NCBI GenBank assembly: GCA_045596725.1
Contig: JAZOCX010000122.1
Coordinates: 1-26,299 of the forward strand
Direction: 5' to 3'
Length of the DNA: 26,299 bases
Origin: Eubacteriales bacterium
GTDB lineage: Bacteria; Bacillota; Clostridia; Oscillospirales; UMGS1783
In this document: piece after piece, positions 8,733 through 20,954 of the stretch
Layout: every line of letters begins with the position of its first letter
Numbering within the stretch: the stretch's first letter is position 1
Made by a program: the position numbers and the translations under genes
The notes under the pieces: generated by a model
What the model was told of the DNA's origin: nothing
Seen by the model: the letters and a program-made list of their open reading frames with translations, nothing else
Databases searched by the model: none

Positions 8733-9380
8733 TTATCGGCTTTTGATCCAGCCCGTTACCTGCCCCGAAACGCCCACACGTTCCTTTTGGTTGGTGATGC
8801 GGATGCGTCCGTTTACCACCTTCTCATCCCAGCGGTAATAGACACCCGATACACGCCCCGCCTTCTTCTTGGCGGTAGATGAAACGTAAAGCGGTTCATT
8901 TTTCAAGGTCAATTCCCCCGTTGGGGGCGTCAGCAAGTTTTTCGTCTTGGGACTTTGGCGCTGACCCTCAAAAAGATAGGTTACCTTCTTCGGGTCAAGG
9001 GCGTATTTTGCCTTGTCTTTGAGGTTCCACACGCTGTACGTGCGGGGCGTTTGCCACACCTCATAATGCAAATGCACGCCCGTCGCCTTGCCCGTCTGCC
9101 CCATCACGCCGATGCTCTCGCCCTGCTTCACTTCCTGCCCACGCACCACCGAAATACGGCTTAAATGCCAGTATAAGGTATAATAGTAACCGTTACTGAT
9201 TTCGTGGCGAAGCACGACGTAGAGGGCTTTTGACGAGTCCATACCGCAGGAAGCGACGATGCCGTCGTCGGCGGCGAGAATGGGGACGTTGGGGGTAGTT
9301 TCCCAGCCGAGGTCAATGCCTCGGTGGAGGATCGAATAGTGTTTTGTAATACCAACGTAGTCTACGGGATAGCGTAACAT
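8733..9380 (-). CDS. M23-family peptidase endolysin with C-terminal putative cell-wall-binding domain
   Basis: HRGIDL, YWHL, MGQTGKATGVHLHYEV zinc motifs; AAGGAGG RBS before ATG 9380; follows the holin. Confidence 0.88.
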   Translation of the reverse strand: MLRYPVDYVGITKHYSILHRGIDLGWETTPNVPILAADDGIVASCGMDSSKALYVVLRHEISNGYYYTLYWHLSRISVVRGQEVKQGESIGVMGQTGKATGVHLHYEVWQTPRTYSVWNLKDKAKYALDPKKVTYLFEGQRQSPKTKNLLTPPTGELTLKNEPLYVSSTAKKKAGRVSGVYYRWDEKVVNGRIRITNQKERVGVSGQVTGWIKSR

Positions 9381-9381
9381 C

Positions 9382-9636
9382 TTATTCCTCCTTATCACAA
9401 AGACCTTTGGTGCGGGGGTCGATGACGGCGCTATATAAACTAACGAGCATCGACACGACCACGACGGGATTGCTGAGTGCCTGACCGATTAAATCAAAAA
9501 GGGCAGGCCAACTGGTGATGGAAGTAAAATCACGGCCGAAATAGGTTAGAATGGGTACAAAGAGCGAAACGATACACTGCACCCAAAAGATGGGGTTGGA
9601 AAAGCGGGTTTTCCAATCAATGCCTAAAAATTTCAT
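9382..9636 (-). CDS. Phage holin (phi LC3-like)
   Basis: IDWKTRFSNPIFWV N-terminus, two hydrophobic helices, AVIDPRTKGLCD C-terminus. Confidence 0.85.
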   Translation of the reverse strand: MKFLGIDWKTRFSNPIFWVQCIVSLFVPILTYFGRDFTSITSWPALFDLIGQALSNPVVVVSMLVSLYSAVIDPRTKGLCDKEE

Positions 9637-9639
9637 AGC

Positions 9640-9891
9640 TCACACTCCTTGTATATACCAAAAAACGAAACCGACCAAAAGCGCCACCGCCGACGCCGTT
9701 ACCGACCACAAAGCACGGGTAACGGAACGCAGGGAGGCGTCTACGATATTGAGTTTTTCGTGCATACGAGCCGTCTGCACCGCCATCTCGCCGAAGCGGT
9801 CCTGCTGACCCTTTTGAGAGGATTCCAGTTCTTGCAGACGGGCGTCGATGCGCTCGAAATGCTCACGGCAAACGGGGAGTTCGCAGTCCAT
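9640..9891 (-). CDS. XhlA-family small membrane protein of the lysis cassette
   Basis: Coiled-coil N-terminus, C-terminal transmembrane helix (LLVGFVFWYIQG), position before the holin. Confidence 0.65.
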   Translation of the reverse strand: MDCELPVCREHFERIDARLQELESSQKGQQDRFGEMAVQTARMHEKLNIVDASLRSVTRALWSVTASAVALLVGFVFWYIQGV

Positions 9892-10742
9892 TATACGACC
9901 AGTTTGAGCAGTTCGATATAATACTCATCCGACAGATCCTCGGCGGCAAGATCTAAGAAGGGACGGACGAGGGCGTCGGCATCACCGCCGATGCGCTTGA
10001 CGGTATCGAGCATCGAGAGGATGTTCACACGAATCCACTGATACCGCTCCTTGGCGGTGCCGTCGGCAGGGTAATTGCCCGACGTGGCCTTAGAATCGTT
10101 ATATTTCGAAAGTTCCAACTGATACTGACGGTTACTGTCGGCAATATCGGCGTTGGCCTTCTTCTCGTTTAACTTTTGCTTTTCCACGTCAAGCTGATAC
10201 TGGCGGTTACTATCGGCAATGTCGGCGTTCGCCTTTTTCTCATTGAGTGCCTGCACGGCAAGGGAGAGCTGATACTGACGGTCTTTTTCCGTCTGCTCCA
10301 CTTCCTGCTCCTGACGGCGCACCTGCTCCGAAAGATGCGAGGCGTAGGCGTTTTCCCGTGCCTTGCTGTCGGCCTCGTCCAGCGCCAGCAACGCCTCTCG
10401 CTCCTCTTTGGAGAGTTTATCCAGTTCCTCTTGCGAGAGATTGCGGATCTGCGAAAGGGCGTTTTGATAGACGTTGTAATAGCCCACCTTTGCCGTTTCG
10501 CTCTTGCCCGTTTTATCCAGCCCCAGCGCTGCCATGACCTCGGCGTTGTAGCCGGTGGGGTCGATGTTTTTGGCGTAGTCGGCATAAGCGCCTCGCATAC
10601 TCTCCTGCTTCTTCGCCTCGGCGCTCGCCTTTTTCTCGGCGGTCGTTTGCGCTACCTCTTCCCGCTCTTTTTGCGAGCGTTCCAAGGCTTCTTTCAGTTT
10701 CTTTTCGATAAGTTCATCGATGGTTTTTTCATAATCGCTCAT
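9891..10742 (-). CDS. Coiled-coil virion protein with 25-aa repeats (possible internal/ejection protein)
   Basis: 283 aa, helical and charged, located between the tail and lysis genes; function inferred from position only. Confidence 0.5.
   Translation of the reverse strand: MSDYEKTIDELIEKKLKEALERSQKEREEVAQTTAEKKASAEAKKQESMRGAYADYAKNIDPTGYNAEVMAALGLDKTGKSETAKVGYYNVYQNALSQIRNLSQEELDKLSKEEREALLALDEADSKARENAYASHLSEQVRRQEQEVEQTEKDRQYQLSLAVQALNEKKANADIADSNRQYQLDVEKQKLNEKKANADIADSNRQYQLELSKYNDSKATSGNYPADGTAKERYQWIRVNILSMLDTVKRIGGDADALVRPFLDLAAEDLSDEYYIELLKLVV
10116..10282 (-). repeat. 75-bp period coding tandem repeat (about 2.2 units)
   Basis: TGATACTG(A/G)CGG recurs at 10120, 10195 and 10270; encodes RQYQL...LNEKKANADIADSN. 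Confidence 0.9.
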
Positions 10743-10754
10743 ACTCTTCTCCTT

Positions 10755-11489
10755 TTATGATATGCGTTGCCAGACGTTTACGCCACCCATCAGGTCATCA
10801 CGTTTTACCCAGTTTCCCCCAAAGCGGGATTCGGGTGTCTCACTTCGTAACGAAAGATACAGCGCACCGATGGGATAAATGCGGCCGAGCATCGCTTCAA
10901 AGGTGGTGTCTTCGGGGGCTAACGCCCACTCGCTCGCCTGCTCGCCTAATTCCACCTGCAAATGGCGAAACTGCACCTTGCCGATAAAATCTCTGGCTAT
11001 CATCTGGAAGTAGTAGGAAGCGATGTCGTGCTCGGTTACGAAGACCGATTTGGAAATGCGTTGCCACTCTCCCGCCTTTTTCAGCGAGGTGCTCTTAAAG
11101 GGGGTGAGATACTGACTTTTTCCGCCCGTTTGGGCGTTGCGGGAAAAGCCAAGCTCGAAGCCCAGGTAGGGACGGACGGTGCCGTAGGTGATATCCTCCA
11201 CCACCCTCGCCTCAACCGACAGGGTAACCCACTGCCCCAACAACGGGGCGGTATCGGTGAGATACAGGGAGCGGAAAGCCGTCTGATCAAACTCGGTCAT
11301 GGTAATGGTAACGGTGTGGTCAACACGGTTAAACGTCATCCATTCATCGTCCTTGTAGTCGGCAAAGTCGCCGTTGCGCACGAGGTTGCGCCCGTCAAAG
11401 ACGGGCGGACGCAATTCCTCAATAGCCTTGGTGTTTTTGGCGATTTGGGAGAGGTCGAACTCCCGTTTAATGCGCTCGTAATCGGTCAT
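10755..11489 (-). CDS. Tail/receptor-binding protein with carbohydrate-binding-like domain
   Basis: GRNLVRNGDF start and QVELGEQASEWALAPED end of the beta-sandwich common in Firmicute phage tail proteins; C-terminal IYPIGALY...FGGNW motif; ATGA overlap supports start 11489. Confidence 0.6.
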   Translation of the reverse strand: MTDYERIKREFDLSQIAKNTKAIEELRPPVFDGRNLVRNGDFADYKDDEWMTFNRVDHTVTITMTEFDQTAFRSLYLTDTAPLLGQWVTLSVEARVVEDITYGTVRPYLGFELGFSRNAQTGGKSQYLTPFKSTSLKKAGEWQRISKSVFVTEHDIASYYFQMIARDFIGKVQFRHLQVELGEQASEWALAPEDTTFEAMLGRIYPIGALYLSLRSETPESRFGGNWVKRDDLMGGVNVWQRIS

Positions 11490-20065: not shown

Positions 20066-20083
20066 ACTTGTCCCCTCCTTTCA

Positions 20084-20185
20084 CGACCAATCGGTCATAT
20101 TTTTACCGACAAGTTTACATAATTCGACAACAATCGCCCCTTTTTCAAAAATGAACATCTTTTGCACCGACCGTTCGGTCATATT
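20084..20185. repeat. Two copies of an 18-bp palindrome-containing motif
   Basis: CGACCAATCGGTCATATT (20084-20101) and CGACCGTTCGGTCATATT (20168-20185). Confidence 0.75.
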
Positions 20186-20206
20186 CTGCAACAAAAAAAG
20201 AGGCGC

Positions 20207-20297
20207 TGTTTCGTTTTGCAACATTAGTCTACCATAGAGTGTTGCATTTGTCAACACTTATTTTCAAAAAATTTTATTTTTGTTGCAAAATGCAAAA
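20207..20297. promoter_or_regulatory. Three 17-bp operators, consensus TGTTGCA-N3-TGCAACA
   Basis: TGTTTCG-TTT-TGCAACA (20207-20223), TGTTGCA-TTT-GTCAACA (20240-20256), TGTTGCA-AAA-TGCAAAA (20281-20297); extra half-site TGCAACA at 20187-20193. Confidence 0.75.
20226..20254 (-). promoter_or_regulatory. Strong sigma-A promoter driving the phage-like operon
   Basis: Minus-strand TTGACA (20254-20249) - 17 bp - TG-extended TAGACT (20231-20226). Confidence 0.75.
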
Positions 20298-20311
20298 AAC
20301 CTTGGTATACT
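20283..20311 (+). promoter_or_regulatory. Sigma-A promoter of the repressor-HAD-azlCD operon
   Basis: TTGCAA (20283-20288) - 17 bp - TG-extended TATACT (20306-20311); AAGGAGG RBS at 20319-20325. Confidence 0.75.
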
Positions 20312-20333
20312 AAGGGAAAAGGAGGGGTGGAAA

Positions 20334-20954
20334 ATGGACAATCGCCCGATTATTCTGGAAACGTTTGCCGAAAGGCTGCGCCAAACGATGGCACAGCGGA
20401 GCATCTCCTGCCGACAGTTGGCGGAAAACATTCACATATCGTTTAGTTCAGTCAGCCGTTATGCGGCGGGACTGGTAGAGCCGAAGAAGGCGGTACTGTA
20501 CGCCATCGCCTCGCACTTGAAGGTAGATGCGGTATGGCTGATGGGGTACGAAAGTCTGCCTAAAAAGGATTTGTTACCCATCACTCGCCGAGAGATCCCG
20601 ATGCTGGGGCAGATTGCGGCCGGCGAGCCGATTTATGCCGAAGGGGCAGGCGGGGTATTGACCGCCCCCGAAACGGCGGATTTTTGCCTGAAAGTCAAGG
20701 GCGACAGTATGATCGGCGCCCGCATTTATGACGGGGATATCGTCTTTATCCACGCCCAAAACGACGTGGAGGACGGCGAAATAGCGGTGGTGCTGATTGA
20801 TGACGAGGCCACCTTAAAGCGGGTGTATAAGCTCGGAGACCGTGTGATTTTACGGGCCGAAAACCCCGCCTATGCGCCGATGGAATTTCACGCCAAGGAC
20901 GGCAAGCAGGTGCGTATCTTAGGCAAGGCGATCGCCTTTCAGGGGGCGCTATGA
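20334..20954 (+). CDS. CI-type repressor: XRE HTH plus S24 autopeptidase
   Basis: N-terminal XRE HTH (RQLAENIHISFSSVSRY), IAAG cleavage site, GDSM serine and TLKR lysine. Confidence 0.93.
   Translation: MDNRPIILETFAERLRQTMAQRSISCRQLAENIHISFSSVSRYAAGLVEPKKAVLYAIASHLKVDAVWLMGYESLPKKDLLPITRREIPMLGQIAAGEPIYAEGAGGVLTAPETADFCLKVKGDSMIGARIYDGDIVFIHAQNDVEDGEIAVVLIDDEATLKRVYKLGDRVILRAENPAYAPMEFHAKDGKQVRILGKAIAFQGAL

Follow-up and report, generated by a model that had tools for sequence, protein, structure and literature searches.

A putative single-operon, podovirus-derived gene transfer agent-like element of gut Clostridia

FpGTA of Faecalibacterium prausnitzii is a podovirus-like, gene transfer agent (GTA)-like element whose genes form two operons separated by 125 kb (Borodovich et al., Nat Commun 2026, PMC12946183). 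That paper describes its particles by electron microscopy and proteomics, with capsids of ~40 nm and host DNA fragments of 8.4-8.9 kb (a ~9-kb band), and it also reports GTA-like packaging in other Ruminococcaceae, Oscillospiraceae, and Christensenellaceae in which the loci were not found. A 12.7-kb cluster in the Butyricicoccaceae (QXXE01) contains a regulator, small and large terminases, capsid genes, a holin, and an endolysin and has no integration or replication genes; QXXE01 host DNA was evenly enriched in virus-like particles, and the authors leaned toward a capsid-forming satellite (bioRxiv 10.64898/2026.07.08.737213). Here we describe an element, similar to the QXXE01 cluster by gene content and ~12-kb single-cluster layout (the two were compared by description only), on contig JAZOCX010000122.1 (GCA_045596725.1). 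The complete 26,299-nt stretch, called the window throughout, comes from the metagenome-assembled genome (MAG) of an uncultured gut member of the Clostridia, Eubacteriales bacterium. The element encodes the complete particle and its lysis functions from a single operon and lacks excision and integration functions as well as an intact replication gene; it has descended with its host in three genera or more, under purifying selection. It probably derives from a temperate short-tailed phage that was domesticated and became fixed in the chromosome, which would make it a viriform or GTA-like element. A sequence-only reading of this DNA had proposed as much and had called the short-tailed architecture unlike that of the best-known GTAs; the lineage does appear separate from FpGTA, but a podovirus-like GTA-like element in gut Firmicutes had already been published in January 2026 (PMC12946183).

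Two more distant systems share part of this design. RcGTA and other alphaproteobacterial GTAs likewise consist of clustered head and tail genes of phage origin and lack replication and integration genes, are vertically inherited under purifying selection, and show a GC content above their surroundings, a truncated small terminase (TerS), and, in some lineages, dispersed accessory genes. They differ from the window element in their siphovirus-like tail, in having lysis genes and regulators elsewhere that are wired to host quorum and stress networks, in lacking a CI-type switch, and in deriving from an unrelated phage lineage in another phylum. PBSX of Bacillus subtilis, a Firmicute defective prophage that is SOS-induced through a neighboring repressor and packages host DNA, also keeps its late structural and lysis genes consecutive at one locus; however, its tail is contractile, its role is to kill and not to transfer, and it spans ~28 kb. 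The Xre repressor of PBSX is not known to have an S24 domain.

Gene content of the operon

Sixteen co-oriented, intact open reading frames (ORFs) occupy the minus strand from 8733 to 20065 (~11.3 kb) and specify packaging, head, adaptor, nozzle, fiber, and lysis functions. That they run from one promoter to one terminator, as the sequence-only reading had stated, was upheld: the leftward promoter is near consensus (TTGACA-17-TAGACT at 20254-20226), and a terminator-like hairpin at 8699-8724 closes the operon, with the downstream SBP gene having its own consensus promoter (8715-8686). Synteny and selection were compared between this MAG (G000) and the relatives G003, G006, G008, and G009, together five species of three genera, four of the five genomes being 94-99% complete; a wider gene map and a capsid tree used 76 related loci. 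In all five species the cluster genes were intact, without pseudogenes, and the earlier claim of structural genes with no visible frameshift stands.

The large terminase (TerL, 450 aa, 17829-19181) was recognized through Terminase_3 / Terminase_6N and phrog_979 (E 2e-45), and the 501-aa portal (16314-17819) is of P22 type (PF16510, E 4.5e-11; phrog_156, E 4e-23). The major capsid protein (271 aa, 15000-15815) matches phrog_267 (E 2e-38), and its ortholog in genome G029 belongs to PF25209, Phage_capsid_4. The assignment of the 159-aa product of 15820-16299 as the scaffolding protein was made by position only; it belongs to a family of 60, always encoded ahead of the capsid gene. A probable head-to-tail adaptor of 180 aa (14415-14957) is encoded between capsid and nozzle; its similarity to SU10_adaptor clusters (score 0.97) is a lead only, and the G029 gene at this position also has a faint SU10_adaptor match. 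The 86-aa candidate TerS (19126-19386), whose gene precedes that of TerL, has a weak DUF5681 match, as do its orthologs in G006 and G008. Family searches revealed no recognizable DNA-binding domain in it, and the predicted complex with TerL residues 1-250 scored 0.32 against a mark of 0.34, arguing neither for nor against binding.

The 553-aa protein encoded at 12757-14418 was identified with AlphaFold and Foldseek as a tail nozzle of the P22 gp10 / T7 gp12 type. The model, made on an alignment of 36 relatives, has a pLDDT of 90.5; its matches in the PDB include T7 gp12, P22 gp10, and Sf6 gp8 (E 1e-15 to 1e-12, TM 0.55-0.67) and 8eap_D (E 5e-14), and it also resembles the nozzles of SU10 and other podoviruses. 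Sixty-five members of this family occur across the related loci. The nozzle had been named correctly from the sequence, and the short-tailed, P22-like architecture proposed with it is confirmed because the nozzle fold is present and the cluster contains no tape-measure, tube, or sheath gene; the predicted particle is podovirus-like.

Downstream of the nozzle gene lie those for a 159-aa fiber-repeat protein (12281-12760; PF22337, Phage_fiber_rpt, E 2e-6), a 261-aa DUF859 tail protein (11486-12271; PF05895, E 4e-16; phrog_372 tail, E 1e-17), and a fast-evolving, tail or host-range-like protein of 249 aa (10755-11504; phrog_1330 tail protein, E 2e-7). The following gene (9891-10742) encodes a 283-aa protein with internal repeats of 25 residues (75-nt periodicity) that is conserved in the family, has a weak DUF7934 lead only, and might have a tail or ejection accessory role; three of its 75-nt repeats stand in tandem at 10117-10282. 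The lysis cassette starts with a small conserved protein (83 aa, 9640-9891) with orthologs in all four relatives. It had been labeled XhlA, a name that gained no support, as the protein has no match in Pfam or PHROG. The cassette continues with a holin (84 aa, 9382-9636; Phage_holin_1, E 7e-15; phrog_297) and ends with an M23 peptidase of 221 aa (8733-9398; PF01551, E 1e-22; endolysin and peptidase PHROGs), which is probably the endolysin and is conserved in the four relatives with a ratio of nonsynonymous to synonymous substitutions (dN/dS) of 0.18-0.30. None of ten cluster proteins was named by NCBIfam.

At the promoter-proximal end, the first gene (19823-20065, TTG start at 20065 behind the ribosome-binding site GGAGGGG) encodes a Cys-rich, probable zinc-ribbon protein of 80 aa. 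The second (19402-19818) encodes a 138-aa protein consisting of DUF6291 only (PF19808, E 8.5e-19), and it was present in the G000 and G003 copies but missing from G006, G008, and G009. In a large protein family, DUF6291 forms the N-terminal domain, and 10 of 80 sampled homologs add the DnaD-type replication domain DnaB_2; because of this pairing, the protein may be what is left of a DnaD-type phage replication gene, or else a co-opted DNA-binding factor, rather than a working replication gene. Its model (pLDDT 83) had no PDB match, and a word-index homolog search returned the query alone. A ~140-nt leader with two short hairpins (20081-20218) separates the promoter from the first gene. It is lacking in G003, where the first gene directly follows the promoter, and may be an extra regulatory layer. 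The 58-aa ORF at 20081-20257, earlier taken for a gene, overlaps the promoter and is probably not one.

Flanks, mobility functions, and the divergent switch

Family searches confirmed that host genes lie on both sides of the operon: SBP_bac_3, ATP-grasp, HAD, AzlC/D, aminoacyl-tRNA synthetase (aaRS), RNase H, and NifS/U. No tyrosine or large serine recombinase was detected on the cluster contigs of G000, G003, G006, G008, and G009, one of which is 204 kb long, and neither bracketing, att-like direct repeats nor a tRNA gene was found at the locus. Among the 76 related loci, a recombinase lay within 10 kb of only one, namely an additional copy, on a long branch, in G215. The recombinase profiles for this screen were built from sequences gathered in the analysis, and they gave matches at viral control loci. 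The proposed absence of an integrase stands, and the truncated DUF6291 gene is the only possible trace of replication functions. In low-depth contigs from four bulk animal-gut metagenomes, no joint skipping the element (an empty site) was found, and contigs in three of the four bridged the repressor-HAD junction.

A further observation was made outside the operon. A block at 6334-6926, containing a gene for a 23S-rRNA-intervening-sequence protein (6451-6813), had 10-20x the surrounding depth in four metagenomes; one contig skips it, with 591 nt replaced by 53 nt, and paralogs occur on contigs C105 and C91. In its behavior the block resembles a small cassette that is mobile or repeated.

The divergent repressor claimed earlier was found to be an XRE-HTH plus Peptidase_S24 protein (Pfam and PHROG matches) that should be self-cleaving, with an Ala-Gly cleavage site and Ser/Lys catalytic motifs intact. 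Its gene occupies the plus strand at 20334-20954, the start being corrected to the ATG at 20334, giving 206 aa. The switch itself (20207-20311) comprises the leftward operon promoter, a rightward promoter at 20283-20311, and three predicted operators resembling TGTTGCA-N3-TGCAACA (20207, 20240, and 20281) that cover both. These three sites are the best matches to the motif in the entire MAG, and the number of matches genome-wide is that expected by chance. The region is conserved in G003 and recognizable in G008 and G009; in G006, an S24 repressor lies ~5 kb upstream, with host genes in between. The stop codon of the repressor gene and the first bases of the host HAD gene (HAD-azlC-azlD) overlap, and the repressor gene heads this host operon. 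From this overlap the repressor appears to be woven into host transcription, and from the confinement of operators to the switch it seems to act locally.

RecA was present in five of the five genomes, and the repressor is the sole full-length S24 protein in G000, G003, G006, and G009. None of the five yielded a canonical LexA DNA-binding domain. The idea that the repressor serves as a global LexA substitute was dropped, the operator motif occurring outside the switch only as often as chance predicts.

Distribution, selection, and descent

All 12 species genomes sampled from the host family (three genera) have the capsid gene, as do 141 of 401 genomes of the order, mostly as a single copy. The gene is near-universal in some families of the order (7/7, 3/3, 24/24, 26/27, and 25/36) and absent from others (0/15 and 0/9). 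Relatives had been expected to carry the same cluster in the same region, and they do: G003 has repressor-HAD-azlC-azlD-aaRS in common with the window, G008 and G009 share HAD-repressor, and in G006 and G008 an ABC-transporter flank follows the lysin gene. The aaRS gene is on the cluster contig in G002, G003, G006, and G008. With the exception of G007, described below, capsid identity to the window follows aaRS identity, at 86-88% vs 90-95% within the genus and 74-80% vs 75-80% further out.

Comparing G000 with its four relatives, dN/dS was 0.07-0.14 for the capsid gene, 0.12-0.17 for TerL, 0.13-0.24 for the portal, 0.17-0.28 for the nozzle, and 0.16-0.45 for the tail and lysis genes, values that are rough because synonymous divergence (dS) is saturated. 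They are similar to those of the host flanks (0.10-0.23) and, as the proposal of domestication had predicted, well below 1. In the capsid tree of the 76 loci, the host-family label changes 15 times, where the minimum is 14 and the mean after shuffling is 51, and genera are monophyletic; gene tree and host taxonomy are therefore congruent. Of the checks that the sequence-only reading had proposed, every computational one that was run pointed to domestication.

One earlier claim, that the base composition is host-like, is not simply so. The cluster has 55.9% GC, its flanks 53.5%, and the MAG 47.8%, and in GC content at third codon positions the structural genes of the window rank among the highest 1-11% of long ORFs in the MAG. 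Cluster GC does track host GC (cluster/flank: G009, 46.0/43.8; window, 55.9/53.5; G003, 60.5/55.1; G006, 65.3/59.4), yet it is always 2-6 points above the respective flanks (window 8733-20257, L013-L016, and L019). An excess of GC has also been reported for alphaproteobacterial GTAs. The contig itself (C122, 54.5% GC) is the GC-richest of the MAG; its binning is supported by the like flanks in relatives, though it deserves a check.

Across the 76 loci, the core module portal-scaffold-capsid-adaptor-nozzle spans many families, and its flanks are conserved within genera. In family f19, 14 genes form an operon of 10.2 kb; it ends in holin and M23 lysin genes and is bordered by host genes, and neither an integrase nor an adjacent repressor is present. 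In f17 (L025, L026, and L152-L166), the terminase and lysis genes are not beside the head genes, and in part of the family the order is rearranged. Gene order is also rearranged in f22 (L018, L146, and L147), an example of the shuffled order in f17 and f22 loci being portal-adaptor-nozzle-scaffold-capsid, and in part of f21 the tail genes are located elsewhere. The f17 and f22 loci, where the head/nozzle module has no terminase or lysis genes beside it, hold the same element in split or rearranged form, a dispersal also seen in known GTAs. An exact-sequence look-up with one f17 capsid gene found nothing.

Larger relatives were found among IMG/VR proviruses of 35-45 kb (e.g., L195, L200, and L225), which are three to four times larger than the present element. 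They carry homologous portal, scaffold, capsid (49-58%, the closest IMG/VR capsid being 58% identical), nozzle, and fiber genes, and four of five have a tyrosine integrase. By this homology they likely represent the ancestral phage type. The element would then have lost ~25-30 kb of early, integration, and replication genes and kept every late gene, which is the opposite of random decay.

Comparison with FpGTA and competing explanations

The likeness to FpGTA (PMC12946183) is extensive: a TerS lacking a DNA-binding domain, TerL, portal, scaffold or protease, capsid, nozzle, fibers, holin, and lysin, with no integrase. Both nozzles are of the P22 gp10 type and match the same PDB entry, 8eap, and both elements are near-universal in their own host group of gut Clostridia. 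The differences are nevertheless marked. The FpGTA capsid belongs to the N4-gp56 family (TIGR04387), whereas that of the window has no NCBIfam match, and a TIGR04387 search of the G000 MAG found no member. FpGTA is split into a head/packaging operon and a fiber/lysis operon; the window has a single operon, lysis genes included, behind an S24 repressor switch, and no adjacent repressor is described in the accessible account of FpGTA. Particles of FpGTA have been seen, whereas the present element is known from its genes alone. For sequence comparison, a Bittarella massiliensis cluster with an N4-gp56 capsid stood in for FpGTA. Only TerL is common to this stand-in and the window (35% identity); the portals are unrelated by BLASTP, and a profile comparison of the two capsids with hhalign gave a probability of 0.65%. 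The FpGTA host family lies inside the sampled order, since the same genomes occur in both samples, and Anaerofilum hominis is among the carriers of a window-type capsid in that family. Another cultured carrier of a related module is Ligaoa zhengdingensis NSJ-31, with a capsid protein 55% identical to that of the window. As far as can be tested through the Bittarella stand-in, the element appears to work like FpGTA but to lie outside its lineage.

In passing, 25 of 201 genomes from the family to which Bittarella, Ligaoa, and Anaerofilum belong were found to carry N4-gp56 capsids, and the B. massiliensis locus (L127, G602:C9) has TerL, portal, and N4-gp56 capsid genes, like FpGTA operon I. This suggests that the FpGTA lineage extends beyond Faecalibacterium.

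If the element is GTA-like, DNA damage would activate RecA and lead the neighboring S24 repressor to cleave itself; the leftward promoter would fire, and the 11.3-kb operon would be transcribed. Portal, scaffold, and capsid protein would assemble into procapsids, which TerL, with the small TerS candidate devoid of a DNA-binding domain, would fill by the headful. The packaged DNA is proposed to be mostly chromosomal because the locus is neither amplified nor excised. Adaptor, nozzle, and fibers would close the head, and holin and M23 lysin would lyse the producer cell. We infer that the heads would hold random host DNA and that released particles would deliver it to related cells.

Several points weigh against this explanation. 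The source MAG is only 69% complete, and from an uncultured organism. The head might hold the whole 11.5-kb locus, as related capsid proteins serve proviruses of 35-45 kb, and no clear ejection or internal-core proteins were recognized in Pfam and PHROG searches. An SOS switch of phage type points to a prophage more than to a classical GTA, whose control is integrated into the host. The saturation of dS (0.8 to >2) has been mentioned. In a genome of the window's own genus (G007; L021, G007:C9), the copy is divergent (capsid 51%, portal 36%, and TerL 64% identity, with aaRS at 95%) and may be a replacement by a related element. Finally, narrow-host-range phages would also be expected to cluster by host in a tree, and vertical descent is consequently argued only by the tree, synteny, and missing integrases together.

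Three familiar element types were rejected: a functional temperate prophage, by the lack of an integrase, att sites, and a replication module; a capsid-forming phage-inducible chromosomal island or satellite, by the lack of an integrase combined with the presence of adaptor, nozzle, fiber, and lysis genes; and a tailocin, by the presence of capsid, portal, and TerL. Four rival readings of the locus were also weighed. It could encode a suicide or killer particle in the manner of PBSX, with lysis and particles harming competitors or releasing DNA and nutrients rather than transferring genes. The SOS-type repressor, the structural-plus-lysis operon, and the lack of replication and integration genes are indeed PBSX-like, the failure to recognize ejection proteins would fit, and the authors of FpGTA left this option open for their element (PMC12946183). 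We nevertheless consider it unlikely: PBSX killing relies on a contractile tail, whereas the present tail is a short nozzle, and TerL, portal, and TerS candidate are fully conserved under purifying selection, which argues that filling with DNA matters. Alternatively, the terminase might still recognize a pac site within the locus, so that particles carry mainly the element and the chromosome downstream of it, as in lateral transduction from a locked-in prophage. The element is unable to excise, its ancestral phages would have been of the pac type (P22-like by portal and nozzle), and genes for the TerS candidate and the possibly DNA-binding DUF6291 protein precede that of TerL. The candidate, however, has only 86 aa and no recognizable DNA-binding domain, the DUF6291 gene is missing from three of the five copies (G006, G008, and G009), and one pac site in the chromosome, with no replication of the element, would supply DNA for only a very small number of heads; we regard pac packaging as quite improbable.

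Small size and a complete head module would also suit a mobile mini-phage or satellite that depends on a helper phage or on host Xer recombinases, and the similar 12.7-kb cluster was likened to capsid-forming satellites (10.64898/2026.07.08.737213). This is very unlikely for the window element, which has its own tail and lysis genes yet neither integrase nor replication initiator. Its position is fixed across genera that are about one or more synonymous substitutions per site apart, its GC content is adjusted to each host, the closest IMG/VR capsid is only 58% identical, and its repressor is translationally coupled to host genes. The last alternative is a recently grounded prophage remnant, functionless and in neutral decay, of which the missing integrase would be an expected deletion and the truncated DUF6291 gene perhaps debris. 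That is extremely improbable given genes intact in five species of three genera, dN/dS of 0.07-0.45 at dS of at least 0.8, and an element universal in its family. Domestication as a GTA-like element remains the explanation that we favor.

By its gene content and sequence divergence, the element appears to be a second lineage of the kind described in 2026, largely unrelated in sequence to FpGTA and unusually complete in being a single operon under repressor control. Long-read virome work indicates that gut Clostridia put much of their own DNA into capsids, and only the FpGTA locus has been characterized. Tentatively, the window could hold the least-derived survivor of an order-wide, podovirus-derived GTA with an origin independent of that of FpGTA. 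Here it would have kept its single operon and its ancestral SOS switch, with split or rearranged versions in other families, and it would account for a large share of the host DNA in those gut virus-like particles that come from Oscillospirales-type Clostridia with no identified locus. Because this copy is complete, compact, and under a simple, intact repressor switch, it would make a tractable model, in which removal or cleavage of the repressor should turn particle production on. The single-operon, split, and rearranged versions would then form a series of stages on the way from a prophage to a host organelle for gene exchange.

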